Numbered from the stretch's first letter, positions 3,639 to 18,119 are shown. The stretch is 31,836 bases of DNA from Promethearchaeia archaeon (GCA_029856125.1 JAHQWJ010000076.1:1-31836); one strand, 5' to 3'. Notes: generated by a model from the letters alone, not told the origin. Made by a program: numbers and translations.

Positions 3639-4187
3639 GTGAATATCAGTTTGGAAGAAGAATCTGTAAAGAAAAAGATCAAGATAAAAGTCACAGTTAT
3701 AGGAGACGGGGGTGTAGGGAAAACATCCTTAATTCAAAAATTCACTCAAGGGAAATTTCAAACTGATTATATCAAAACTATAGGGGCACAATTCACTCAT
3801 TATGAAACGGAAATAGATGGATATAGGATTGAATTAATATTCTGGGACATCGCAGGGCAAGACAATTTTCATTTCCTACGCCCTTCTTTTTATAGATCTA
3901 GTAAAGCAGCGATTATCGTATATAGTTTAGAAGAAAATAATCTAGGGGAACGGAGTTTTGAACATATAACATCTTGGTATGAAGACGTTAAAGAATTTTG
4001 CGGGGAGATTCCTGCCGTAATCTTTGCCAACAAAGTTGACCTGATAAACGAACAGACTTTAGATAAGGAAAAGATTCAAAACCTCGTAAAGGAGCATAAT
4101 TTCCTTGGTTACTATATCACCTCGGCAAAAACAGGGCAGGGGCTTGACCACGCTTTTAATGCTTTAAGTAAAGAGATACGAAGATAA
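3639..4187 (+). CDS. Rab/Ras-like small GTPase (eukaryotic signature protein type)
   Basis: G1 GDGGVGKTS, G2 TIG, G3 WDIAGQ, G4 NKVD, G5 TSAK; no C-terminal Cys prenylation motif. Confidence 0.95.
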   Translation: MNISLEEESVKKKIKIKVTVIGDGGVGKTSLIQKFTQGKFQTDYIKTIGAQFTHYETEIDGYRIELIFWDIAGQDNFHFLRPSFYRSSKAAIIVYSLEENNLGERSFEHITSWYEDVKEFCGEIPAVIFANKVDLINEQTLDKEKIQNLVKEHNFLGYYITSAKTGQGLDHAFNALSKEIRR

Positions 4188-4427: not shown

Positions 4428-6875
4428 ATGAAAATGAGAAGAAAAGTAGTTAAAACAAGCTTGCTGGTGATCGCGTTGATGGTATCTATGACAATCCCCA
4501 TACTCGCTGTAACAGCTAAAAAGAAAGAGTGGGTTATTGATCCAATCATTATTGATGAATTAGGAATAGGTTTGCCAGGTTTGCCAGGTTTGCCTTGGGC
4601 GGATTATGCAGATGAACCTTGGTTGAAGGGCTCTGGCACTCTTGAAGATCCGTACATGATTAAAAATGTGGTTATAGACGCTAAAGGTTCAAATTTTTTC
4701 TGTATGATGATTCTGAACTCAGATGCATATTTTAAAATAATGGATTGTACCTTCAGTAATACAGGTCCTGGGCCAGATGCTGGGAGAAATGCAGCTTTGA
4801 TATTAGCCAGTACCCAAAATGGCGTAATTTTCAAAAACGAAATCTTTGATTGCGGAAATGTAGCCGGTCAAGGAAGCGGGATAGCATTAATAGCTTCCAG
4901 TAATAATAAAGTACAAAAAAATTTCTGTCACGACAATGCAGGGCCAGGTATTTATCTTCAGTACTCCAATGATAATGTACTAAGACAGAATTTGTGCAAA
5001 AGGAATCAATGGGGTATCATGATATCAGAGGGGTCAAATAATAACGAAGTAACAAAAAATGAGTGCTACGATAACAATGAGTATGGTATATTTTTGTATC
5101 TTGAGGCAAACAACAATCTAATAACGCAAAATGAATGTAAGGATAACTTTAATTCTGGAATTATAGTGATACAGTCACATGGAAACACTATAAGCGAAAA
5201 TGATTGTAGTGTAAACGGGAATGGGATCATCATAATGTATTCTAATGGTAATGATGTTATAGATAATGTATGCTCTGAAAGTTTCCTTGAACACGGTATT
5301 CTCGTCTCGAATTGGGCTGCAGATAATACAATCGCGAGGAATAAATGCTTTAAGAACGCACGATCAGGGATTGTGTTATATAATATGGCATATAATAACA
5401 TGATAACTGGTAACCTTTGCTACGAAAACTTTGAATCGGGAACTGTTATTGATAGTTCCTTTCTAAATGCTGTGGAAAATAATCTTGTGTACGGAAATAG
5501 TTATACCGGGATGCAATTATACTACGCCGATAACAACATGATTGCCTGGAATGTTTTCACTGAAAATTATATAGGAATACAACTATTTTACTCTAATGGT
5601 AATGAAATAACGAATAATGTCTGCAATGAAAATTATGATCAAGGAATCACGGGAGAATATTCGAATGGAAACATGATAGCTGAAAATTTCTGCAGCGAAA
5701 ATGTAGGACCAGGTATTAGTTTCAGATCCTCCAATGATAATTTAATAACACTGAATTTGTGCACTGGGAGTCCATGGGGTATCCTTTTATCAATGTCGAA
5801 TAATAACGATGTAACCAAAAATGAGTGTATTGAAAATGGAGAGGGAATTGTTGTCGCTTATTATGCTAACGATAATAAAATCACGGAGAATAATTGTACT
5901 GGTAATTATGAGAACGGTGTTATTTTGGCGGTAAACGCAAATTATAACATTATTAATCAGAATAATTGCTCGGAAAATCTCCTATCTGGTATAGCACTAA
6001 TAACTTCTAGCGGTACTATTATATCAAAAAATGACTGCAATAATAATGGTGAATCTGGCATTTCTATTATCGGTTCCGATTACACCGATGCTAGAGATAA
6101 TATACTCTATGGAAATATGATCGCAGGCAACCTAAACGGTATCCATTTCTCCGAAGCGGACAAAAACGATATTTTTATGAATACAATTAAAGAGAACGAT
6201 GTGGGCATGCTAGTCGAAGGACAAAGTGAACTTAACCTCATCTTTCACAACAATTTTATAGATAATGTTGTACAGGCAGTGAATGAACGCGCAGGGCTTA
6301 ATAATTGGCATAACATCTATATGTTAGAGGGTAATTACTGGAATGATTATGAAGGCGCTGATGATGACGAGGATGGTATCGGAGATATACCGTGGCCACG
6401 GTCGGACTTTGACGTACATCCATTCATGGAAGAAAATGGTTGGGAAATTCTTACTCCTATAGAACAGGAAATACTAAATGCGCGAGCAGATCCCGATACT
6501 AATAGGTTCGGGTTCGGTCTCGTTTATCAATCTACCGAGCAAGGCTATCTAATTGTTGGATTAGGACAACTATTTTCAGAAAGGACGCATGACACCTGGA
6601 TTCCTCCCTTTACATGTCGACTATGGTTTTATCAAGTAGTAAATGGCGAAGTAGTAGAAGTAGAATCTTACTTTCAAGGAAATCTTTGGTCTTTCGAGTG
6701 GAGTACTTTCTATCAAGAACCAGTATGGGCTAATTTATATTTCTTAATAATTCCACCAAACATTATAGATCTTCCTCCCGGAGAGTATCCATTTAAATGG
6801 GGAGTTAGTTTTTATAGTGGAGGGGAGCAGCAATTTATGAATTTTACTACATCCTTTAAAATTCCCGAACCCTAA
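4428..6875 (+). CDS. Secreted right-handed parallel beta-helix protein (NosD/CASH-like)
   Basis: Signal peptide (MKMRRKVVK + hydrophobic stretch), GSGTLEDPYMI cap, >20 GIxLxxSNNNxIxxNxC repeats, closing GNYWNDY...DGIGD motif, extra C-terminal domain. Confidence 0.9.
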   Translation: MKMRRKVVKTSLLVIALMVSMTIPILAVTAKKKEWVIDPIIIDELGIGLPGLPGLPWADYADEPWLKGSGTLEDPYMIKNVVIDAKGSNFFCMMILNSDAYFKIMDCTFSNTGPGPDAGRNAALILASTQNGVIFKNEIFDCGNVAGQGSGIALIASSNNKVQKNFCHDNAGPGIYLQYSNDNVLRQNLCKRNQWGIMISEGSNNNEVTKNECYDNNEYGIFLYLEANNNLITQNECKDNFNSGIIVIQSHGNTISENDCSVNGNGIIIMYSNGNDVIDNVCSESFLEHGILVSNWAADNTIARNKCFKNARSGIVLYNMAYNNMITGNLCYENFESGTVIDSSFLNAVENNLVYGNSYTGMQLYYADNNMIAWNVFTENYIGIQLFYSNGNEITNNVCNENYDQGITGEYSNGNMIAENFCSENVGPGISFRSSNDNLITLNLCTGSPWGILLSMSNNNDVTKNECIENGEGIVVAYYANDNKITENNCTGNYENGVILAVNANYNIINQNNCSENLLSGIALITSSGTIISKNDCNNNGESGISIIGSDYTDARDNILYGNMIAGNLNGIHFSEADKNDIFMNTIKENDVGMLVEGQSELNLIFHNNFIDNVVQAVNERAGLNNWHNIYMLEGNYWNDYEGADDDEDGIGDIPWPRSDFDVHPFMEENGWEILTPIEQEILNARADPDTNRFGFGLVYQSTEQGYLIVGLGQLFSERTHDTWIPPFTCRLWFYQVVNGEVVEVESYFQGNLWSFEWSTFYQEPVWANLYFLIIPPNIIDLPPGEYPFKWGVSFYSGGEQQFMNFTTSFKIPEP
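4568..4594 (+). repeat. Perfect 9-bp tandem repeat x3 (AGGTTTGCC) encoding GLPGLPGLP
   Basis: Read directly from the sequence. Confidence 0.9.
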
Positions 6876-6953: not shown

Positions 6954-7328
6954 TCAATAATTCTTGGATCGAATTACATCATACCATTGATTCCAAGTAT
7001 TTAATAATTGTACAAACTTTTCTCGGGAAATTGAGTATTCCTTGAATTTACCTTTCTTAGAACTATGAATAAATTTATGTTCCTCCAAAATTCTAACATG
7101 ATGGGAGATGGAAGGTTGATTTCTATTCAAGCTTTTTTCAATATCAGAGAGGAAACATGGTTTATTATTTAATAGATTTAAAATTAAAAATCTGTCTTCA
7201 TTGCCTATGATTTCCAAACATTCTCGTAAGAACTTATAGGAGGTATTATTCTCGAAATTTTTTTTTATAGTTTTAATTTTATTCTTTGTTAATTCATCCA
7301 TGGTTTTCTTCCTATTTTCTTTTTTCAA
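6954..7328 (-). CDS. ArsR/SmtB-family HTH transcriptional regulator
   Basis: GNEDRFLILNLL...NQPSISHHVRILEE...KKGKFKEYSI. Confidence 0.9.
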   Translation of the reverse strand: MKKENRKKTMDELTKNKIKTIKKNFENNTSYKFLRECLEIIGNEDRFLILNLLNNKPCFLSDIEKSLNRNQPSISHHVRILEEHKFIHSSKKGKFKEYSISREKFVQLLNTWNQWYDVIRSKNY

Positions 7329-7343
7329 TTATTTTTCGAATAA

Positions 7344-8168
7344 TCAAGATGAGAGATTTTTAATCCAATTCTCCCATAGTTGCACGAATTCCATTATTTT
7401 TGGCTTATTTATGGAGTAATAAATATATTTTCCGCTTTTCCATCCTTTAATGAGTCCTGTTTTCTCTAATTGTTTAATGTGGTGTGAAGAGGTAGATTGA
7501 GATTTACCGATACACATCTGTATCTCATCCAATTTTAAGGGTTGAGATTTTACTATTTCTAATAGTAAAAATCTTTCAGGATTTGAGAACGATTTCAACC
7601 ATTCAACTAAATTGATTTTTTCACCAAAAACATCTATTTCAAGCATAGGATCTATGTCTTCGTTTGCTTGTTCAAGATAATTTGTTTTTTCTAAAAGATT
7701 TTTAACTTGAGAGGGTAAAATATTTTTATCTGGTTGAACCAATTGTTTAATCTGTTCAAATTTTTCATGACCTTTCTTAAGTTTATTTTTCACTTGATGA
7801 TTATACATTGCGAGTTCTATTGTAGGTAGAAGGTCATCTTCATTCGTGATAGGTTTTACGATATATCCATAAGGTTCCGATAATTTGGCTCTATTTAGGG
7901 TTTTTTTATCACTATATGCAGTTATGAATATAATGGGAATATTATAGTTTGAAGTAATAATTGCCGCTGCTTCAATTCCATCCATAGTTCCCGATAGAAT
8001 TATATCCATTAATACCAAATCAAGATTTAAATTCTTGATTTTGGAAATTGCTTCCTCTCCAGAGGAAACAATAACAATTGGATTATAGTTTAATTTTTTT
8101 AAAAGAATCGCGATTGCTTCAGCGGTAATTAATTCGTCCTCAACAATCATAACTTTTAATTGTGTCAT
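7344..8168 (-). CDS. Response regulator: N-terminal REC fused to C-terminal ArsR-type wHTH
   Basis: REC: IVEDE, VLMDI, FITAY, IVKP. ArsR: SNPERFLLLE...SQSTSSHHIKQLEKTGLI...GKYIYYSI. Confidence 0.92.
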   Translation of the reverse strand: MTQLKVMIVEDELITAEAIAILLKKLNYNPIVIVSSGEEAISKIKNLNLDLVLMDIILSGTMDGIEAAAIITSNYNIPIIFITAYSDKKTLNRAKLSEPYGYIVKPITNEDDLLPTIELAMYNHQVKNKLKKGHEKFEQIKQLVQPDKNILPSQVKNLLEKTNYLEQANEDIDPMLEIDVFGEKINLVEWLKSFSNPERFLLLEIVKSQPLKLDEIQMCIGKSQSTSSHHIKQLEKTGLIKGWKSGKYIYYSINKPKIMEFVQLWENWIKNLSS

Positions 8169-8172
8169 TTTA

Positions 8173-10089
8173 CTACCAGATAATTATAATATGAGTTCCA
8201 TTATTTTTTTCAATAGAAATCTTTCCACCCATTTTTTTGGTTATAGTGGATATAAGTTTTAATCCTAGTGTATCTGAATTTTTATAATCTATGTCTTTAG
8301 GGAATCCTATTCCATTATCATACACTTCTAATAATTTTCTATTGTTTATGGTTTTTTTGAGTGTAATAATAATTTTTCCCTCATCATTTTTAGAAAATGC
8401 ATGTTTTAACGAGTTAGATACAAGTTCATTTATAATTAAGCCACAAGCATTGGCATCGTCTAGACTGAGATCAATATTATCAATGTTCAATTGTAGTTTA
8501 ATCTGTTTGGTATTTACAGAATAAATTTTAAATAGATTATTAACAAGGTTTTTTATGTATTTTGTAAGATATATCTTATTCAAGTTTTCGGAGTCGTATA
8601 ATGTTTGGTGTATTAGCGCCATAACTTTAATACGACTTTGGAAATCCTTAAAAATATTAAGAATTCGCTCATCTTTTACATATTGTTCTTGTAGTACTAT
8701 TAAACTTGAAATTATTTGTAAGTTGTTTTTTACTCTATGATGGATTTCTTTCAGGAGTATTTCTTTTTCTGCTAGGGACGATCCCAGTAGGGTTTCATTC
8801 TTTTTCTGCTCAGATATATCAATTATATTTATATACAGAGCAGAATTTCCTTGAAATTCAATCCTTTTTGAATATTGTCGAGTATACAAATAAATTTCAT
8901 TTTTTTTCTTCATTCGTATTTCGGATTGAAATGAGGAGAGATCTCCGCTTAAAATTTTATTATATCTTTCAAGAGCTATTTGTAAATCTTCCGGATGAAT
9001 ATGCTGAGTTATAGTGTTTAGATTCCAAGATAATAGTTCATTTATTGAAAATCCTAAAATGTTAGATATACCTTTGTTTGCAAAAATTATTCGCCCATTA
9101 GAAACTATAAGCGTACCCAACAAGGATTGTTCTGTGAGCATTCGATATTTTTCTTCGCTCTCTCTTAACTCTTTTTCAGTAGAATCACGAACAATAACAC
9201 CTGTAAGAACATTCGCTATAGATTGTAAAAAATTGATATCATCTTTTGAAAATATCCGATATTTTTTTGTATGAATTCCTAAAATACCAAATGGGGTGTT
9301 TCTTCCTTGAATAATAACGCTCATTCCGCTAATAACATCATGATCCGCAAGAAGTTTTGGAGCAAAAAATCTAGTTTCAGTTTTTAAGTTTTCCGCAATT
9401 ACTGGAGTAGTTTTTAGTAGTGTAAAACCCGCTTGCGAATTTTTATTATTTTCAACGGTTGCATTTCCAACTAATCCTTTATGCCAGCCAATTCCTGTCC
9501 GTAATTTTAAAAATTTCTTATTAGGAAGAATTTCAAGTACCTTTGTATACTCAACATCCAATATTTTTGCAAGCAAAGATGTTGCATTTTTAAATATAAT
9601 GTCAATATTTTTTTCAGTAATAGTTTCCAAGCCAAATTTGGCAATCAAAGCTTGCCTATGTATATGATCTTCAATGGACAATTGGATTTCCTTGCTTTTC
9701 GTTAAATCTTGGGAAACACAGAGAATTCCGATAATTTTATTTTGATTATTAATAATTGGTGCTTGATTTGATGTAAGATGTATATAAGTTCTATTTTTTT
9801 TTTCTAATCGATATTCAATGTTTTTAACCAATTTACGTTCCATTACTTTTTTAATTCCTTCGTTAAGAATCTTTTTATCATTAGGATGAATTAATTTATT
9901 AATACTTGATGAATCAAGGATTTCTTCTTTATCATATCCTAATAAATCATTAAAAGCATTATTAACATCAAGGAAATTTGTGTTTATATCTACTGTATAA
10001 ATCATACAGTTAGAAATTTTAAGTAATGTTTGAAATTTCTCTTCAATTAAATCTTGAGAAGAATTAACATTTTCGTGTTTTTCACTCAA
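8173..10089 (-). CDS. Cytoplasmic PAS-GAF-PAS histidine kinase (HisKA_2 type)
   Basis: Two PAS domains (IHPND, IHPED), GAF (DDINFLQSIANVL), EIHHRVKNNLQ, NELVSNSLKHAF, DNGIG, TLGLKLI; no TM helices. Confidence 0.93.
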   Translation of the reverse strand: MSEKHENVNSSQDLIEEKFQTLLKISNCMIYTVDINTNFLDVNNAFNDLLGYDKEEILDSSSINKLIHPNDKKILNEGIKKVMERKLVKNIEYRLEKKNRTYIHLTSNQAPIINNQNKIIGILCVSQDLTKSKEIQLSIEDHIHRQALIAKFGLETITEKNIDIIFKNATSLLAKILDVEYTKVLEILPNKKFLKLRTGIGWHKGLVGNATVENNKNSQAGFTLLKTTPVIAENLKTETRFFAPKLLADHDVISGMSVIIQGRNTPFGILGIHTKKYRIFSKDDINFLQSIANVLTGVIVRDSTEKELRESEEKYRMLTEQSLLGTLIVSNGRIIFANKGISNILGFSINELLSWNLNTITQHIHPEDLQIALERYNKILSGDLSSFQSEIRMKKKNEIYLYTRQYSKRIEFQGNSALYINIIDISEQKKNETLLGSSLAEKEILLKEIHHRVKNNLQIISSLIVLQEQYVKDERILNIFKDFQSRIKVMALIHQTLYDSENLNKIYLTKYIKNLVNNLFKIYSVNTKQIKLQLNIDNIDLSLDDANACGLIINELVSNSLKHAFSKNDEGKIIITLKKTINNRKLLEVYDNGIGFPKDIDYKNSDTLGLKLISTITKKMGGKISIEKNNGTHIIIIW

Positions 10090-10545
10090 ATTTCATGCAC
10101 TATACTAAACTATCTTTTTTTTATTGACTTTAATGTTTAATAGAATGTCTTTAATTATAATATTGGAAATTTAATTAAAAAAATATCTGTTTATATTTGA
10201 TCCATCCAAGTTTTCATTCTACTTTTCTTAATAAGATTAAAAAATGCTTTAAAATAAATCTTTTGAATATAAATCGAAAAAGATTAATATTATTCATCTA
10301 AGATAGATTCAATAGAAAGAACTTAATTGCTAATCTAGCAAAGATTTTATGTGGTAATGTAAATTTTAAAGATTTTCTTCCATTTTTTATTAAGATTCTA
10401 TCTAATTTGTCAATTTAAAAAACTTATTTATATGGGAAAATTTATAAATGAAAAAAGGTAAGAAAAGTCATATAAAAAATTTTGATTTTTTATTTAAATT
10501 TGTTTGTTTCAAAAAATATAATATCGAAAAAATAGGTCAATAAAA

Positions 10546-11031
10546 ATGGTAAAACTAACAAATGAAATGAAAGAAGGTTTAGTTGTTCCCGGCAAAGGGG
10601 GCAGTTTGATTTACTTAGCAACGTCATCATTAGATGGTAAACCAAATATTGCCGCAATGCGTTATATAGATACATATAAAGACGATAAACTTCTGGTTGC
10701 AGATATGTTCTTGCTTAAAACTAAAGCGAATCTTAAAGAAAATCCGGAATGCACAATAACAATATGCCACCCAATGGACTCTGGAAGAGACTGGTCCTTT
10801 AAAGGTAAAGCTGTTGATATTGAATATGGTTTTCCTCCAGATTTTGATTGGCACGGAGCTAAAGCTAAAGATATCTTAGAAGGTTGGGGTGACTGGCATA
10901 ATAAAGAACCTCCAGATGAAGTTCCTCCAGATGTAGTTTATCCTAAAGCAGCTCAACGCGGAATAGTAGTATTACATGTAGAAGAAATATATTCAATCGA
11001 AAAAGGAAAAGTAGGTGAAAAGATACAATGA
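10546..11031 (+). CDS. Pyridoxamine 5'-phosphate oxidase-like FMN-binding split-barrel protein
   Basis: LATSSLDGKPN...ADMFLLKTKANLKENP...FKGKA...VEEIYS. Confidence 0.85.
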   Translation: MVKLTNEMKEGLVVPGKGGSLIYLATSSLDGKPNIAAMRYIDTYKDDKLLVADMFLLKTKANLKENPECTITICHPMDSGRDWSFKGKAVDIEYGFPPDFDWHGAKAKDILEGWGDWHNKEPPDEVPPDVVYPKAAQRGIVVLHVEEIYSIEKGKVGEKIQ

Positions 11032-11444
11032 CTGTGAAATTAACTGAAAGGATGAAAGCTTGGATTAAAATTGGTTGTCATTTGAATGTAGCAACGAAAA
11101 CTGGGATTCCTTTGGTCACCGTATCAAGAAATGTAAAATCTGTTTCTGATGATGAGGCAGTTTTTGCGTTATCTCAGGATGAATATTCCGTTATTGGAGC
11201 AGCTTTAGCTGAAAATCCTTGGGTTGCATTTGGAGTGTCTCGAGCAGGAGGAATCCGTGCTTGTTTTCAATTCAAAGGTAAAGGATCTATTGACAAAGAA
11301 GGAGATATTTATAATTTAAAGGTAAAAATATCTGAATTCTATTGCACCAAACCCGGATGCTATGCTGGAACAAGACTAGACACTAAACCCGCTCAAGAAT
11401 GTGAAGAATGGGAACATGGTCTCTGGACCGATTTACCAAAATAA
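11028..11444 (+). CDS. Divergent split-barrel (PNPOx-like) paralog
   Basis: VATKTGIP...LAENPWVA...FQFKGKG...ISEFYCTKPGCYAG; ATGA overlap with the previous gene. Confidence 0.7.
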   Translation: MTVKLTERMKAWIKIGCHLNVATKTGIPLVTVSRNVKSVSDDEAVFALSQDEYSVIGAALAENPWVAFGVSRAGGIRACFQFKGKGSIDKEGDIYNLKVKISEFYCTKPGCYAGTRLDTKPAQECEEWEHGLWTDLPK

Positions 11445-11530
11445 TAAAATAATAAATATAATCAAATTTTTTTTTTGAATTTTAGTTATTTGAAAATTGA
11501 ACTTTTATGGGTTAACGATGGTATTAATTT

Positions 11531-11860
11531 ATGGAGAACAAAATAGTGGCTGAAGAAGATATCAAAGAAGAAGAAATAATTAAGAAAAAACCAAAAAAAC
11601 CAAAAAAACCTCCGAAGCAATTCCCGTGGTTTATGCCCTTTATGTGTGATGGGTGTGGTGATTGCGTTAAGGTTTGTCCACAATCCGGCATTGAATTATT
11701 AGGTCTGGACAGAAAGGTTCCATGTGCTTGGCTTATGTATCCTGATTATTGTATAGGATGTGGAAAATGTGCAGAAGCTTGTCAAAACTCAGCTGTTCAA
11801 ATGACTGCATATGTAGAAAAAGCTATTGAAAGGTATAAGACAAAAAAACCTTTCCAATAA
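11531..11860 (+). CDS. 2x[4Fe-4S] ferredoxin with charged N-terminal extension
   Basis: CDGCGDCVKVCP and CIGCGKCAEAC; N-terminus EEDIKEEEII-KKKPKKPKKPP. Confidence 0.9.
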   Translation: MENKIVAEEDIKEEEIIKKKPKKPKKPPKQFPWFMPFMCDGCGDCVKVCPQSGIELLGLDRKVPCAWLMYPDYCIGCGKCAEACQNSAVQMTAYVEKAIERYKTKKPFQ

Positions 11861-11911
11861 AAATTAGTAAACAAAGATATTTTAAAATAAAAACAAAAGA
11901 GGAAATTAAAA

Positions 11912-12976
11912 ATGGTATTTGATTTAAGAAGATGCGATTTTTCAAAATGTAAGGGAGAATGTCTCGCAAGGTGTTTGTTCATTGATTACAATGAAGAACA
12001 AGCTAAAGCAGATATGGCTAAATTAATTCACCAGAAACCTGCGGATGTACTTGCTAAATGCGTAACATGCTATGCGTGTAATGAATTTTGTCCACGAGGA
12101 GCAAATCCATGGGATTTGATTAATCAAATGCAAGAAAAAACAGGTCTCTATATATATCCAGAAGAGGCTAAAAAAACTGCATTAGGGTGGGCGAAAAAAG
12201 AGGATAAGATTATTAAAGGAGATACTGGTAAACCAGCATTGTCTATAGGAGGCTTTGCTGATGCTCTTCCATATGATAAAGTGTTTAAAGGAAAGTTATT
12301 TGAAGGACTCTCTTTAATAATGGGAGGCTCATACGCTTGTAGAGCACCCGAAACTCATATGTGTGATGCTAATTCTTGTTTAGATAATCTGCCTTCAATG
12401 ATTAAAAATCTTACAGATACAGGTTACAAAGAGATAATTTTCTACCATGATGCATGTTATGGGTTTGTAACATCGGAAGCATTAGCAATGATGATTGAAG
12501 TTCCTTTTAAACCTATTCACATTATGGAATATATTAGAAATTGGCTCCGTGATAATAAGGATCTTATTACTCCATTGAATTTGAAAATTGCATATCAACG
12601 ACCTTGTACTTCAAGATATAACCCCCATGGAGAACTTACAGAAAGTTTATACGATTGGATGGAACAAACTTTTGAATTACTTGGTTGTGAGCTTGTAGAA
12701 CGAAAATATCAGAAGGAGAACTCTATGTGCTGTAGTTCTGGTATTTTTCCAACCCAGAAAAAGAGGGCAATGGGGTATGTCAAACAAAATCTTCAAGATG
12801 CTAAAGATGCCGGAGCGGAAGCATATATTACATTTTGTCCGATCTGTACAGCAGTAATGAGAAACACAGCTAAAAATATGGAAATGACACCTTATTATAT
12901 TGTCATGTTAGTACAAAAAGCTCTGGGAGAAGAATTGCCTATAGGTGGGGCTGGAATTGGTGTACCAGTTCATTAA
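11912..12976 (+). CDS. HdrD/GlpC-like Fe-S oxidoreductase (4Fe-4S + CCG-type domain)
   Basis: N-terminal Cys cluster, CVTCYACNEFCP, and C-terminal YQRPC...CCSSG...CPIC (CCG-like). Confidence 0.8.
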   Translation: MVFDLRRCDFSKCKGECLARCLFIDYNEEQAKADMAKLIHQKPADVLAKCVTCYACNEFCPRGANPWDLINQMQEKTGLYIYPEEAKKTALGWAKKEDKIIKGDTGKPALSIGGFADALPYDKVFKGKLFEGLSLIMGGSYACRAPETHMCDANSCLDNLPSMIKNLTDTGYKEIIFYHDACYGFVTSEALAMMIEVPFKPIHIMEYIRNWLRDNKDLITPLNLKIAYQRPCTSRYNPHGELTESLYDWMEQTFELLGCELVERKYQKENSMCCSSGIFPTQKKRAMGYVKQNLQDAKDAGAEAYITFCPICTAVMRNTAKNMEMTPYYIVMLVQKALGEELPIGGAGIGVPVH

Positions 12977-13019
12977 AATTTTATAACCAATTTTTTTTTT
13001 TAAAACTAGGTGTATAATT

Positions 13020-13769
13020 TTGAAAGTTTTGATTAGTATCCGTTCCTTAGAAGAGTTAATCCCTGCTATTAATGGAGGAGCTAATATAATCGATTTAAAA
13101 AACCCTAATGAAGGTTCGCTTGGTGCTCCTTTTCCTTGGATGATAAAGAAAATTAGAAATTTTGGTAATGACTTTGCTTTAAGTGTTGCTATTGGAGATA
13201 TGCCGAACTTACCAGGAACAGCAGCCCTTGCTTCTTCTGGTGCTGCAGTCTGTGGTGCGGATATAGTTAAAGTAGGCCTCTATGGTCCTCGTTCTTTCAA
13301 TGAAGGGGTTAAATTGTTAAAAAGCGTAGTAAAAGCAGCAAAAGATATTAACCAAAAAATTTTAGTTGTTGGAGCAGGTTACGCAGATTTCAAGTCTTTT
13401 AATGGTATTGATTCGATGGATATTCCTTCAATATGTAAATCCGCTGGAGCAGATATAGCAATGTTAGATACATATTCAAAAAATGGTCAAAAATTATTCA
13501 ATTTTACAGATTCTGAAAAATTAAGGAAATTTGTTAAGAAAGCTCGCGAAAATAACCTATTAGCAGCTCTAGCTGGGTCACTCGAGCTAAAAGATATAAA
13601 AAAAATAAACGATATAGGAGCAGATATTATCGGATTTAGAGGGGCTGCTTGTAGTGGATCTGATAGGAAAAATGGAGTTGTAGAAATTAACAGGGTAAGA
13701 CAAATTTTAGAAATCTCACAAAATCTAAATAAAAATGATAGGATTTTAAGATCTACTACTTTAGTATAA
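13020..13769 (+). CDS. mfnB: (5-formylfuran-3-yl)methyl phosphate synthase (4-HFC-P synthase, DUF556)
   Basis: KVLIS...GGANIIDLKNPNEGSLGA, SVAIGD, DIVKVGL, GYAD, MLDT, ALAGSL, DIIGFRGAAC; both family Lys residues present. Confidence 0.92.
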   Translation: MKVLISIRSLEELIPAINGGANIIDLKNPNEGSLGAPFPWMIKKIRNFGNDFALSVAIGDMPNLPGTAALASSGAAVCGADIVKVGLYGPRSFNEGVKLLKSVVKAAKDINQKILVVGAGYADFKSFNGIDSMDIPSICKSAGADIAMLDTYSKNGQKLFNFTDSEKLRKFVKKARENNLLAALAGSLELKDIKKINDIGADIIGFRGAACSGSDRKNGVVEINRVRQILEISQNLNKNDRILRSTTLV

Positions 13770-13826
13770 AATTTTGTTATGAAAATATAATATTATAAAA
13801 AAATGAATGAAAACCTTACATAAATT

Positions 13827-14093
13827 ATGATGAAAAGTATGACTAATATGAAAATTAAACATTCTCCTGAAAAATGTTATGCGTGTAAAACTTGTGAATT
13901 AGCATGTTCTTATCATCACACGAAAACTTTTCAACCATCTGTTTCAAGTATTTCTGTTGAGAGAGACCATGTTAATGGAATTTGGCGTTGGACCTTGATG
14001 GATACGTGTGATAAATGTCAAGGCGAAGAACAGCCCTTATGTGTAAAATTCTGTTTTTATAATGCAATTTCTATTGAGGAGGCTGGTGAATAA
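13827..14093 (+). CDS. Small Fe-S subunit of aldehyde oxidoreductase (AorA-like, short)
   Basis: CYACKTCELACSYHH...CDKC...PLCVKFC; directly precedes the AOR gene. Confidence 0.85.
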   Translation: MMKSMTNMKIKHSPEKCYACKTCELACSYHHTKTFQPSVSSISVERDHVNGIWRWTLMDTCDKCQGEEQPLCVKFCFYNAISIEEAGE

Positions 14094-14094
14094 A

Positions 14095-16014
14095 GTGAAT
14101 AATTATAATATCAGAGGGGGAATCACAGGAAAAATACTTAGAGTAAATTTAAGTGATGAAACCGTAAGAGTAGAAGATAATGAATACGCAAAAAGATGGA
14201 TTGGGGGGAGGGCTCTAAGTAGTTCGATTCTTCTAAATGAAGTAGAACCCAACATAAAGTGGGATGATCCAGAAAATTATCTTATTTTTGGCACGGGTGC
14301 CCTTGTAGGAACTCTTGTTCCAGCAGCATGCCGGATGAATATCGATACTTTAAACGTCTTCAATAACGGTAAGGGGTCCTCTAATTTTGGTGGACACTTC
14401 AGCCCTGAAATGAAATTTGCTGGTTTCGATCAAATTATAATCAGTGGAAAAGCAGAAAAACCAATTTATCTCTTTATAGAGGATGGAAAAGCTGAAATAC
14501 GAGACGCTAGGCATTTATGGGGTGCAAACACATTTGAAACAGAACAACTCCTTAAAACCGAACTAAACGATAATAAAATTGAAGTTGCCTCAATAGGACC
14601 GGCTGGAGAAAATCTTGTTCGTGGATCTGCTATCATCGTAGATTGTGGTCGAGCAGCGGGAGGGTCAGGTGTTGGATGTATAATGGGAGATAAAAAGATC
14701 AAATCAATCGTTGTTCGAGGGCATAAGGAGGTAAAGGTAGCTTATCCTGAGAAGTTTATTGAACGGGTATACGAAGCGTATCAAAAAATTATGAAACGCC
14801 CTACAGCTAAATTATTTAGAAAAAAAACACTCGGAGGACTAGTATATAACGATTCTGAACAATTCGATGAACTTTGGGAGATGATGCACACCGTCAGAAA
14901 TGCCCAAGATGTTCATTGGTCTCGTGAAAAACGAACAAGAATGATGGGTAAAAATGGCGTTGGTAGGTTTTTCAAAAAAATTCAAGCGTGTTACGCTTGT
15001 CCAGTAGGGTGCCAGCCATATTCAGAAATTGAGGAAGGAAGATATGCAGGTACTAAAGGGCTAGGGTATTGGATAAATTCTGTAATGTGGTCGGGTAAAA
15101 TGGATATTTCTGATCCAGAAGCATCATTAAAATACCATCTTCGTGCTAACCAGTTAGGTTTGGATGGGGATAACTCTTCTGTCGTGATGGCATGGGCTTT
15201 TGAGGCGTATGAGAAAGGATTATTAACGAAAGAAGAAACTGATAATCTAGAATTAACATGGGGAAATGTAGATGCTATGATGGAATTGCAAGAAAAAGTA
15301 GCTCACCGCAAAGGTTTTGGAGATTTTCTCGCAGATGGAGTAGTTGAGGCAGCAAAAAAACTCGGAAAAGGCTCAGAAAGATTTGCTATTCACCAAAAAA
15401 ATCAAGACACTCTTGATCCTTATAGACTTGCTAAGGGGTGGTCTCTAGCATGTGCAACATCACCTGTAGCAGGACGTCATATGAGAGGCAGTATCAACCT
15501 CCCTATCGCATTTGGTCCTAAAGGAGTTAAATTTAATCCATATTCTTATGAAGACCAGCCACCAATCGTGTTCTGGGAACTTATTTCAAAAGAAATAGAA
15601 GATATTATAGGAATTTGTGTATATGTTGGAACATGGTCTGGAGTATATGCGCTTGAACGACCTGATTACGTTGACTTAACTAATTTAGCACTTGGAACTA
15701 ATTTAACTGAAGAAGAATTCGTGTTGCTTGGACAGAAATCATATAACTTAGAAAAAGCTTTTAATACTTTACATGTGGGCTTCACACGTAAGGATGATTT
15801 ACCACATCGGAGATTCTTTGAAGATCCAATCCAATCAGGACCCCATAAAGGTGAGAAATTAGATATGAACAAGTATAACTCGATGCTGGATAAATTTTAC
15901 GAGCTTCATGGTTGGGATAAAGAATCTGGATTGCAAACCCGAAAAAGCTTAGAAAGTATAGGTTTAAAAGACGTAGCTGAAAAATTGGCCAAAGCCGGAC
16001 GCTTAATTGAATAA
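14095..16014 (+). CDS. aor: Tungsten-dependent aldehyde:ferredoxin oxidoreductase family protein
   Basis: GKILRVNLS, SNFGGHF..EMKFAGFD, SIGPAGEN, CYACPVGC, LGLD, GIC, FYELHGWD. Start revised from 14062 to in-frame GTG 14095 (GGTGA SD, 1 nt after upstream stop). Confidence 0.93.
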   Translation: MNNYNIRGGITGKILRVNLSDETVRVEDNEYAKRWIGGRALSSSILLNEVEPNIKWDDPENYLIFGTGALVGTLVPAACRMNIDTLNVFNNGKGSSNFGGHFSPEMKFAGFDQIIISGKAEKPIYLFIEDGKAEIRDARHLWGANTFETEQLLKTELNDNKIEVASIGPAGENLVRGSAIIVDCGRAAGGSGVGCIMGDKKIKSIVVRGHKEVKVAYPEKFIERVYEAYQKIMKRPTAKLFRKKTLGGLVYNDSEQFDELWEMMHTVRNAQDVHWSREKRTRMMGKNGVGRFFKKIQACYACPVGCQPYSEIEEGRYAGTKGLGYWINSVMWSGKMDISDPEASLKYHLRANQLGLDGDNSSVVMAWAFEAYEKGLLTKEETDNLELTWGNVDAMMELQEKVAHRKGFGDFLADGVVEAAKKLGKGSERFAIHQKNQDTLDPYRLAKGWSLACATSPVAGRHMRGSINLPIAFGPKGVKFNPYSYEDQPPIVFWELISKEIEDIIGICVYVGTWSGVYALERPDYVDLTNLALGTNLTEEEFVLLGQKSYNLEKAFNTLHVGFTRKDDLPHRRFFEDPIQSGPHKGEKLDMNKYNSMLDKFYELHGWDKESGLQTRKSLESIGLKDVAEKLAKAGRLIE

Positions 16015-16096
16015 TTTTTTTTTTCTCTTTTTTAAGAACTAATTTCTTAACCATATGGATATAAAAAATAGTTCTTTCTGAGATGTTTTAAACTAA

Positions 16097-16258: not shown

Positions 16259-17923
16259 CTAATTTTTTTTATTCTTTTTAAGATTTGGAATAACTACATA
16301 AAGAGGCCACTTCTTCAGAATCCCTTTTGGAATTTCACCATCTTGAACCTTTTTCAGCATTTCAGAGCGAGGATAAAGGTAGGAGACAGGAGATTCTTTG
16401 GTCATTTTTATTTCTAAATACCCATCTCTTAAAGCTTCTTCTATTTTTAGAACATTGCTACAATCTGCCATTAATTTATTTAGATTTGACCCCTTTATTA
16501 ATTCTTTTTTATTATTTTGTTGTAGATATAATATCCAATGAGAATGGCGAGTATTTTCTGAGTTAATTAGGAGAAGAGAATCTAAATTATTATCTAATTT
16601 AGAACTTATACAGTTTTTAATTCTTTTGGGATCGATGATCTCCAAATTTTTGAATTTAAAGTAATCTCCTACAAGAACAATATGTTCCGAAGGGTATTTC
16701 ACGTCCTTTGAAAAATTTATTGGATATTTTAGGGTAAAACTAGATCTTAAAATTTTTCCATCGATTTGTGGCAATCCTTTATTAGATAATACAGTTATTA
16801 CATCTCCTAATTCTATGTTTATGAGGGGCTTATTACCGTCTAACCGTGAAATGCACAATTCTCCTCTATTTATTTTTGTTCTAGATATAAGTTCTTTTTG
16901 TCCTTCCTGCTTAAGTACAGACATAAATAAAGGAAAAATAACCATCTTTCGTTCTCGAGCTAATTTGAAACTTCCCATATTTAGGCTTGCTGCAACGGGT
17001 CCTGCTTCCGAAGCCACATAAAGATTTGTAAATTTCTCACTACCCTTTTGCCAATTCATGTATTTTCTTATCTGCGACCAGTCACCTTCTGAAAGGGAAC
17101 TGATGCTAAAAACTAAACAAGTATTTGCAAGTTTTTTAAATAACATACTTTGTATCTTTTTTGTGGCATCAGTTAACCCTTCTTGTTTTATTAACGATTC
17201 AAGTTTTTCATAAATTGGATTTATAATAGCAGGTTTCGTTTTTAATGAAGATTTTATACCCGTTTTAAATTTTTCTAAGTTTATCCAACCCAAAACTGTA
17301 GCCGCAGGTGCTGAAATGACTTTTATTTTTTCAATAGATAAAATTTTTGAAATAATTTCAAGGTTTTTAGAATTGCGATATTCATATAATAAATAGGATT
17401 TCGGATTAATCAAGGATAGCATTAATCTCTGAGAAAATTCTGAGGTATACATTTTGACGTATTTCTTCCCATTTTCATAATCGATACCATCAAAATCTAC
17501 TCGTGAGGGAACAAAAATAATCGCTGACGATATAGAATTTAAGCCGCTGGATTCAAATATTGCTTGCATTCCTGGTGCCCAATTTCTCTGAACAAAACCT
17601 TTTGACATATGAAACCATTTAAGAGCAGATTTCTTGTTACTCGTAGTTCCAGAAGAATGACAGAATATTGTAGGTTTTGAGCTAGAACTATTTTGAAGAA
17701 AATCATTAATATCAATAGAAAACTCCTTGGAATCAGTTTTTTTACGCTTGAGTTTATTGAAAATATCATCTACTCCTGACAGTTCTGCTAGCTTCAAACA
17801 AACTTCTTCATATTCTTTACTCGAGGAGATATTTAACCAACTTCTCCAATGATTTGAAGAAATATCTCCAAAAGTTTTATTAAAAATCTCCTGCAGGTTT
17901 GGGTCAAAATCGTATGAATTCAT
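16259..17923 (-). CDS. GH3/LuxE-like adenylate-forming (ANL superfamily) enzyme
   Basis: HSSGTTS..K P-loop, LYVASEAG, INIELGDVI. ATG 17923 lies 1 nt after the stop of the upstream small ORF (track start 17941). Confidence 0.7.
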   Translation of the reverse strand: MNSYDFDPNLQEIFNKTFGDISSNHWRSWLNISSSKEYEEVCLKLAELSGVDDIFNKLKRKKTDSKEFSIDINDFLQNSSSSKPTIFCHSSGTTSNKKSALKWFHMSKGFVQRNWAPGMQAIFESSGLNSISSAIIFVPSRVDFDGIDYENGKKYVKMYTSEFSQRLMLSLINPKSYLLYEYRNSKNLEIISKILSIEKIKVISAPAATVLGWINLEKFKTGIKSSLKTKPAIINPIYEKLESLIKQEGLTDATKKIQSMLFKKLANTCLVFSISSLSEGDWSQIRKYMNWQKGSEKFTNLYVASEAGPVAASLNMGSFKLARERKMVIFPLFMSVLKQEGQKELISRTKINRGELCISRLDGNKPLINIELGDVITVLSNKGLPQIDGKILRSSFTLKYPINFSKDVKYPSEHIVLVGDYFKFKNLEIIDPKRIKNCISSKLDNNLDSLLLINSENTRHSHWILYLQQNNKKELIKGSNLNKLMADCSNVLKIEEALRDGYLEIKMTKESPVSYLYPRSEMLKKVQDGEIPKGILKKWPLYVVIPNLKKNKKN

Positions 17924-17924
17924 A

Positions 17925-18119
17925 CTAGATAACTGGTTCAAACTTTTTTATCTTTTCGTATTGTATAAAGTTCTTCATATTTATTTTGTATCTCAATTCT
18001 TTTATAGTTGTATCACAATCATATTCAAGTTCTTTACACTGTTTCTTATAAAGTTCACAATCTCTGGCAGTTTCCCTGACGACTATTGATAAATCGTCTA
18101 AAACTTTGTTAAAACTCAC
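17925..18119 (-). CDS. Small hypothetical helical protein (64 aa)
   Basis: Stop abuts the ATG of the GH3-like gene (TAG-T-ATG), suggesting coupling; fills an otherwise empty gap. Confidence 0.6.
   Translation of the reverse strand: MSFNKVLDDLSIVVRETARDCELYKKQCKELEYDCDTTIKELRYKINMKNFIQYEKIKKFEPVI

Follow-up and report, generated by a model that had tools for sequence, protein, structure and literature searches.

The DNA analysed here (the window) is a stretch of 31,836 nucleotides from a Promethearchaeia archaeon (contig C77; GCA_029856125.1 JAHQWJ010000076.1:1-31836), and the system in question is a cassette of seven genes on its plus strand, at positions 10546 to 16014. In order, the genes encode two split-barrel proteins, a ferredoxin, a CCG-domain Fe-S protein, a second copy of the furan synthase MfnB (MfnB2), a small Fe-S subunit and an enzyme of the tungsten-containing oxidoreductase (WOR) family, here called the tungsten enzyme. 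The first four genes are a conserved unit (the core), which moves between hosts that use methanofuran (MFR) and tetrahydromethanopterin (H4MPT), and extra copies of four genes for these carriers (mfnA, mfnB, ftr and mch) gather around this one module. It is proposed, tentatively, that the module is an accessory, probably sensor-controlled redox system acting on carrier-bound one-carbon (C1) units, for which MfnB2 would supply extra methanofuran. A chemical tie to MFR/H4MPT or a precursor is better supported, being common to this proposal and to its readings as a furoate route or as carrier repair. The system is real and recurrent; the furoate chemistry put forward in an initial annotation of the window, made from the sequence alone, is one among several open readings.

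Distribution and rearrangement

The source genome (3.69 Mb, 99% complete, 6% contaminated) has its nearest named relatives in the Promethearchaeota/Lokiarchaeia. Among 135 genomes of the Lokiarchaeia family, the clade of the tungsten enzyme and core gene 1 were each detected in 18, and mfnB2 was detected in 22. The tungsten clade and core gene 1 occur together in 17 genomes, both mismatches lying at contig ends, and mfnB2 is present in 17 of the 18 genomes with the tungsten enzyme. No family besides this one gave matches in a draw of 251 Asgard genomes. All seven genes recur on two contigs of non-Asgard archaea (L037 and L038), in two different shuffled orders and on mixed strands; L038 is probably from Bathyarchaeia, its enzyme appearing as sister to a cluster with Bathyarchaeota-labelled members. 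Since the gene set survives rearrangement in these contigs, a functional link is argued. The initial annotation had named a linkage unique to this genome, with mfnB as its sole copy, as something that would speak against it; instead, the linkage of mfnB with AOR-family, PNPOx and CCG genes was found in three different gene orders, and the source genome holds a second mfnB. With its order repeated in many genomes and its gene set found in other orders, the arrangement is far beyond chance. Five genes tested against one relative are under purifying selection (rough dN/dS 0.07-0.23), which, together with the presence of the cassette in many genomes, rules out a pseudogene or an assembly artefact.

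The core is also found in Methanomicrobiales. Homologues of the CCG protein, at 45-48%, are present in Methanospirillum, Methanoculleus, Methanoplanus and Methanogenium, where the CCG gene comes first, followed by gene 1, gene 2 and the ferredoxin gene, with a convergent mch opposite. Of 201 Methanomicrobiales genomes, 24 have core gene 1; a draw of 301 genomes from their phylum yielded no further carrier, and the plasmids and viral contigs searched gave no match. Neither mfnB nor the tungsten enzyme lies beside the Methanomicrobiales core, and the clade of the tungsten enzyme was not found in three core-bearing genomes tested. Cultured carriers include Methanospirillum hungatei, Methanoplanus endosymbiosus, Methanogenium marinum and Methanoculleus spp.

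Carrier genes recruited to the core

The mch copy that adjoins the Methanomicrobiales core lies on the opposite strand and is termed Mch*. Its profile was positive in 23 of the 201 genomes, all within the 24 core carriers; in the remaining carrier the contig breaks off at the core. In five core-bearing genomes tested, the core-adjacent mch is a second copy, with a normal Mch encoded elsewhere in 5/5. Some Lokiarchaeia cassettes have the arrangement core-mfnB2-ftr2-mch* in place of the tungsten genes. One family genome (G006) carries mfnA2 directly before an mfnB2-FeS-WOR block, plus ftr2-mch*, and also has the housekeeping mfnA and mch; in a second locus (L032) mfnA precedes CCG-mfnB2.

Glu186 of Mch is said, in work of Upadhyay et al. 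from 2012, to be the general base. This position holds Glu in all 16 housekeeping copies examined and in 4GVQ, and Gln in 4GVR. In the module-linked copies it is Thr in Methanomicrobiales and Lys in Lokiarchaeia, whereas Arg183 and the SQK segment (93-95) are kept in all of them. Of the 135 family genomes, G006 alone, which carries the module and a normal mch too, gave a match to the Lys type. The Thr- and Lys-type proteins each group with the housekeeping Mch of their hosts, and a single clade is rejected (p-AU 0.0009); Glu186 appears to have been lost twice.

Organization of the cassette

All seven open reading frames (ORFs) reported in the initial annotation are present and co-oriented. The features of the locus are as follows.

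10546-11031, plus strand: core gene 1, PNPOx_N split barrel (PF01243), flavin/F420-binding fold
11028-11444, plus strand: core gene 2, second split-barrel-like ORF, ATGA overlap with gene 1
11467-11476, plus strand: run of ten T (T10) at the gene 2-ferredoxin junction, possible leaky terminator
11531-11860, plus strand: core gene 3, 2x[4Fe-4S] ferredoxin
11912-12976, plus strand: core gene 4, CCG-domain Fe-S protein
12991-13001, plus strand: run of eleven T (T11) between the core and mfnB2
13020-13769, plus strand: MfnB2, second-copy synthase of 4-(hydroxymethyl)-2-furancarboxaldehyde phosphate (4-HFC-P), PF04476, E 1e-72
13827-14093, plus strand: small Fe-S subunit of the tungsten enzyme, 8 Cys, two clusters
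14095-16014, plus strand: AOR/WOR-family W(Mo)-bis-pterin enzyme, AFOR_N + AFOR_C, in a clade for which no characterised member was found
16015-16024, plus strand: T10 run after the last gene, putative terminator
10440-10478, plus strand: two TATA-like elements upstream of core gene 1, putative promoter, conserved in an alignment of 11 Lokiarchaeia loci
8173-10089, minus strand: PAS-GAF-PAS histidine kinase, divergent from the cassette
7344-8168, minus strand: response regulator with ArsR-type helix-turn-helix (HTH) domain, PF00072+PF01022, by synteny
6954-7328, minus strand: ArsR-type HTH regulator, PF01022, divergent from the cassette and kept beside it in Lokiarchaeia

The ORF of the tungsten enzyme opens at 14062; GTG at 14095, behind GAGGAGG, fits the 639-aa homologues and is most likely the start, one base past the stop of the Fe-S gene. 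The kinase, the response regulator and the ArsR regulator accompany the cassette in Lokiarchaeia (synteny). The kinase of the window (8173-10089, minus strand; 638 aa) is without the first ~125 residues of its 762-779-aa orthologues, with no upstream remnant, a local deletion that might change the control of the cassette.

Both T-runs named in the initial annotation as possible breaks in the transcript exist, and a third follows the last gene. The gene 2-ferredoxin junction has a T-run of 7-15 in 14/14 loci measured, and the CCG-mfnB junction one of 8-13 in 12/14; the latter run is present with tungsten-enzyme cassettes, and two ftr-mch cassettes have only 3 T there. As both junctions conserve these runs against a background of 7% of the source genome's genes with a run of at least 9 T behind them, staged transcription of the cassette is plausible. 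A sigma-70 and hairpin scan, of a type unsuited to archaea, gave no excess over shuffled background. No RNA data set was listed as containing the locus; four marine-sediment runs with a metatranscriptomic label and one sediment run with an RNA-Seq label probably or possibly represent DNA, and the four runs compared consist of contigs, which neither rank genes nor reveal a transcript.

Several neighbours were also noted. A 560-aa ORF convergent to the cassette (16259-17941, minus strand) has no Pfam or NCBIfam match and is not kept beside it. The window also encodes a Ras-family small GTPase (3639-4187), which in some relatives lies beside the regulator block as well, and a NosD-like beta-helix protein of 815 aa (4428-6875). 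Genes of HdrA-like, FrhB-like, MvhD-like or HdrBC-like type adjoin Lokiarchaeia cassettes at four loci (L034, L036, L058 and L141) and could encode an electron partner.

Proteins of the core

Core gene 1 is 71-78% identical between Lokiarchaeia and Methanomicrobiales and belongs to a small, tight family (6 representatives at E 1e-30). A PDB sequence search gave no match; the fold matches of a pLDDT-64 model (Foldseek) are HupZ, MSMEG_3380 and the D. vulgaris FMN-binding protein, FMN-type and F420-type proteins both being among the top matches. The product was rejected as a true PNP (pyridoxine phosphate) oxidase, its nearest folds being HupZ and MSMEG_3380 and no NCBIfam match being found. A Trp/Pro/acid-rich insertion (window 10825-10955, residues ~95-136) is near-invariant from Lokiarchaeia to Methanomicrobiales, has pLDDT <50 and is likely a partner- or substrate-binding element. 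Core gene 2 has no Pfam match, its nearest Atlas clusters are of the PNPOx family (cosine 0.92-0.94), its C17 and C106 are invariant, and it adjoins gene 1 in every sufficiently long locus. The split-barrel fold annotated for both proteins is borne out for gene 1 by PF01243 and Foldseek and for gene 2 by features only, with flavin/F420 binding predicted.

The CCG protein has 8 N-terminal Cys for two cubanes, a first CCG domain with C143, H149, H179 and C182, and an invariant C-terminal motif (C232, C273-C274, C309, C312). Its earlier label, Hdr-like, holds at the domain level but not at the family level (HdrB model TIGR03288, 21.8 vs a cut-off of 345 bits). Complex prediction for the four core proteins, with the CCG protein as partner, gave a score of 0.00 without controls and is used neither for nor against an assembly.

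MfnB2 and the methanofuran genes of the host

MfnB2 matches PF04476 over its full length (245 bits vs a cut-off of 22.4) and MfnB (MJ1099) likewise (E 3e-66), and lies below the NCBIfam equivalog cut-offs (PRK02227; 271.5 vs 341 and 258.6 vs 304 bits). The catalytic residues are intact (D25, K27, K84, D150, K154, R216); we take Asp25, Lys27, Lys85 and Asp151 to be the catalytic positions of MfnB. Lys155 of MfnB is catalytic (PMC11365854). MfnB2 is predicted to make 4-HFC-P from two molecules of glyceraldehyde-3-phosphate (GAP). The housekeeping mfnB (C84:123894-124628) is intact, 44% identical to MfnB2 and of the type found in most relatives. In a quick tree, the housekeeping Asgard copies fall outside a single clade (SH-aLRT 96) that unites the cassette MfnBs of Lokiarchaeia with those of the two non-Asgard contigs; position 7 is Ile/Val in the cassette MfnBs and Pro in the housekeeping Asgard copies.

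Other contigs of the source genome hold fwdA, two ftr, mch, mfnA and two ATP-grasp (MfnD-like) genes, as placed by family searches; the earlier statement that the window has no methanofuran or fwd gene besides mfnB agrees with this for fwdA, mfnA and the ATP-grasp genes, mfnC lying outside the searches. For mfnF and the adjacent amino-acid-kinase gene (probably mfnE; L140:1468-3356 in a relative), tblastn gave no match in the source genome, which reflects either an assembly gap or a real loss. As mfnF is present in 13/14 family relatives, with or without the cassette, the module is not a replacement pathway, and a role as MfnF replacement is ruled out.

Further observations concern the mfnB genes and their surroundings. 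In the stretch C84:122416-124628, the housekeeping mfnB is two genes from a 247-aa ORF that looks HisA-like by eye and resembles in this the orf17 known from C1 clusters of methylotrophs. A second, divergent Ftr-like gene (C142:60925-61827) is 31% identical to ftr2, and a second FwdA-like gene (C9:7113-8732) is under the family cut-off. Copies of mfnB2 with no module gene nearby occur at L005:788-2902, L007, L017 and L142-L144, L142 and L143 ending at mfnB2; two lone copies are divergent from a 386-aa ORF, uroporphyrinogen-decarboxylase/methyltransferase-like by eye. Two cassettes are decaying: L032:7986-10747 retains mfnA, a shortened CCG gene, mfnB2 and only fragments of the tungsten genes, and L048:3050-4155 has its CCG gene in two pieces.

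The tungsten enzyme and its bacterial relatives

The tungsten enzyme has AFOR_N and AFOR_C domains and the cluster Cys 299/302/306/508, and its nearest solved structure is the aldehyde:ferredoxin oxidoreductase (AOR) of P. furiosus. Characterised AORs have in common Thr243, Glu313, Tyr427 and His448 (PMC12096430). Of this second shell only the His is kept (His462 = His448, invariant), and the equivalents of Glu313, Tyr427 and Thr243 are not. In the sequence alignment of 121 clade members, GYWINS or similar replaces EGPEYE and the Tyr position is Leu/Val/Ala; the Thr243 region is variable and its alignment register uncertain. Membership of the AOR/WOR family, as annotated, is thus upheld by domains and cluster Cys; the enzyme falls outside the AORs sensu stricto, and aldehyde oxidation cannot be assumed because three of the four residues are not kept. 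Two other identities were rejected: BamB/YdhV, as there is no Cys ligand at the Glu313 position and Trp326/Asn328 are near-invariant, and GAPOR supplying GAP (24 bits vs a cut-off of 1300).

The archaeal cassette clade is sister to enzymes of Desulfobacterota (SH-aLRT 99, quick tree), and the small Fe-S subunit gene is also found upstream of the enzyme in bacterial relatives. The Desulfobacterota sister operon (L120:2676-18561, L039:1-10917) encodes IclR, an ABC transporter, UbiD, FeS + Glu-less WOR, a xanthine-dehydrogenase-type enzyme, a carbamoylase and a hydantoinase. The nearest solved structure to its UbiD is the furan-dicarboxylate decarboxylase HmfF (6H6V, E 1e-103; next family at E 1e-54 or higher). 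Further genes of the operon have hydantoin-5-propionate amidohydrolase and N-carbamyl-glutamate hydrolase as their closest families, each match being under the cut-off. This gene content points to a five-membered heteroaromatic or N-C1-N substrate without singling out furans; because hydantoinase and carbamoylase genes are included, the substrate may be imidazole and not furan. The operon is possibly an undescribed anaerobic pathway for an imidazole or furan carboxylate. Most bacterial relatives, the more distant ones, have unrelated neighbours.

Proposed role and alternative explanations

The split-barrel pair, the ferredoxin and the CCG protein would form a chain from one-electron carriers to a two-electron flavin/F420 step; through this chain, ferredoxin and an N-linked C1 unit at the formyl/methenyl level would exchange electrons. 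Handling of the substrate would fall to an exchangeable, host-dependent partner, either Mch* or the tungsten enzyme with its Fe-S subunit. Because its general base is lost, Mch* would hold methenyl- or formyl-H4MPT without hydrolysis, and the tungsten enzyme would carry out oxo-transfer at a carrier-bound formyl or amidine carbon, a side route parallel to Fwd/Mtd. The two arms of methanofuran synthesis begin with the reactions of MfnB and MfnA. MfnB2 would make ordinary 4-HFC-P and, like MfnA2, raise the MFR pool while the module is on; second copies at both first steps are expected if the module raises carrier demand. The recruitment of mfnA2, ftr2 and mch* points to intact C1 carriers rather than free furoate, and the lack of an aldehyde-type second shell and the putative N-C1-N ring chemistry of the sister operon would count on the same side. 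An unrecognised C1 branch is suggested with reserve, in which a flavin/Fe-S core with a pseudo-Mch or a new tungsten clade would act on carrier-bound formyl/methenyl units or on a variant-carrier furan.

Several points weigh against this proposal. What is observed is anatomy, co-occurrence and residue changes, and the component reactions are inferred from them. The core cannot need Mch*, because most Lokiarchaeia carriers are without it, and a single shared substrate is for this reason also an extrapolation. MfnB2 is detachable, one cassette (G745) being without it and five genomes having it with no module. Because carrier genomes are related, the co-occurrence counts may go back to a small number of transfers. 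The tree of Mch has long branches and narrow sampling, and a furan enzyme as the closest solved relative of the UbiD in the sister operon is in keeping with the furoate route.

In that route, the one pursued in the initial annotation, MfnB2 would make 4-HFC-P and the tungsten enzyme would oxidise or hydroxylate it to furoate, the core carrying electrons or modifying the furoate further, the outcome being a new furan metabolite, or else a variant carrier on which Ftr2/Mch* would act. This is regarded as rather unlikely. The linkage recurs, and mfnB is clustered with this tungsten clade in three gene orders; it accompanies the enzyme in 17/18 family genomes having it, is kept in a separate mfnB2-FeS-WOR block in G006, and is a second copy whose cassette clade stands apart, marked by Ile/Val in place of Pro at position 7; an HmfF-like UbiD (E 1e-103 to 6H6V) neighbours the sister clade. 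These parts of the furan-pathway inference stand, and others do not: 3/4 of the AOR second-shell residues are missing; in Methanomicrobiales the core persists with neither gene beside it and the tungsten clade was not found in the three such genomes tested; the G745 cassette dispenses with mfnB2; the sister operon resembles imidazole/hydantoin catabolism; and the recruitment of mfnA2 among the carrier paralogues implies a boost to the tyramine arm of MFR as well.

That the module re-reduces oxidised methanopterin, or clears damaged MFR or pterin aldehydes after oxidative stress, is considered unlikely; Mch* would then hold the damaged pterin, and MfnB2 and MfnA2 would resupply furan and tyramine. 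The patchy occurrence (12-13% of genomes) suits a conditional function, and this reading also has on its side the conserved divergent PAS-GAF kinase and regulators (PAS kinases flank the Methanospirillum form too) and the presence of F420/FMN reductases among split barrels. Genes for desulfoferrodoxin, rubrerythrin and a flavodiiron protein adjoin the L037 cassette, but oxidative-stress neighbours occur at one or two loci only, and Ftr2 is no obvious repair gene. A thermopterin-type change to the pterin, or a substitute for the aminotransferase MfnC or for dihydromethanopterin reductase, would be further conceivable roles. It is, finally, quite improbable that a generic WOR/CCG/flavoprotein cassette merely carries a redundant mfnB and other C1 genes as passengers or as mates in a regulon, without any link in chemistry. 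WOR and CCG paralogues do abound in Lokiarchaeia (the source genome has 12 and 6 besides those of the cassette), mfnB2 can vanish from the cassette or persist alone, and the bacterial relatives of the enzyme mostly lie among unrelated genes. However, four different carrier genes (mfnA, mfnB, ftr, mch) were recruited as extra copies, Mch* follows the core without exception in 201 genomes despite its opposite strand, Glu186 was apparently lost twice, and mfnB remains in the cluster through rearrangement.

Novelty and significance

The methanogen C1 pathway is among the best-studied in archaea. In the literature searched (subscription papers outside its scope), no description was found of the gene combination, its methanogen form or a Glu-less Mch, and nothing on Mhun_2380-2384 or on a 4-HFC-P synthase/DUF556 gene with AOR; the initial annotation, too, knew of no such combination. 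No mention of furan or mfnB was found in the 2026 WOR classification and its supplements. The folds of the individual parts are all known. A defined physiological role is available for 5 of 92 WOR clades (PMC13328260). The link to the module gives one further clade a short substrate list and offers a testable explanation of the duplicate mch genes. In its Asgard version the methanogen module is joined by a second copy of the furan synthase and by a tungsten enzyme whose active site is not of the AOR type, and through the cultured Methanomicrobiales this pathway becomes approachable in growable organisms. If the C1 branch is true, methanogens and Asgard archaea would possess, alongside Fwd, Mtd and Hmd, a route linked to ferredoxin, and a non-catalytic Mch would have its first role; if instead the furoate route is true, a new biological furan route of biocatalytic interest would be at hand.

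Comparison with known systems

Like MfnB of methanofuran biosynthesis (MJ1099; PDB 4RC1/4U9P), MfnB2 shows a full-length match and keeps the catalytic Asp/Lys/Arg set; unlike it, MfnB2 is a second copy in a separate clade, beside redox genes and not mfnC/E/F. The Mch* paralogues keep a fold-level sequence match to Mch of A. fulgidus (4GVQ), with Arg183 and the SQK segment, but have Thr or Lys for Glu186 and are second copies in the tested genomes. In ANME-2a/b/d (anaerobic methanotrophic archaea), 'Mch2' is the sole Mch (PMC9012536). The CCG protein shares with the HdrB/HdrD type a complete C-terminal CCG Cys set, its best solved matches being HdrB (E 1e-13); it differs in having its own N-terminal dicluster, in a cassette without an HdrA/C partner.

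The tungsten enzyme shares AFOR_N/AFOR_C, the four cluster Cys, the His448 equivalent and an adjacent small Fe-S subunit with the group of AOR sensu stricto (P. furiosus 1AOR) and the Class II WORs (WorL+WorS; ASOR/WOR5, GOR). In contrast to both, it is without equivalents of Glu313, Tyr427 and Thr243, and no characterised member of its clade was found. WorS of the Class II WORs has four [4Fe-4S] clusters (PMC13328260), whereas the cassette subunit has 88 aa, 8 Cys and two clusters. BamBCD (Class II benzoyl-CoA reductase) and YdhV likewise combine a WOR-family subunit without the AOR second shell with Fe-S and CCG proteins; the cassette enzyme differs in having no metal-ligand Cys and in keeping the His448 equivalent, and the cassette in having no HdrA-like/Nuo-like genes. 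In furoate/5-hydroxymethylfurfural catabolism (HmfABCDE, HmfFG), the counterparts are the HmfF-like UbiD and the xanthine-dehydrogenase-type Mo enzyme of the bacterial sister operon, which adds a hydantoinase and a carbamoylase; the archaeal cassette, unlike that pathway, is without those genes and has a furan synthase.

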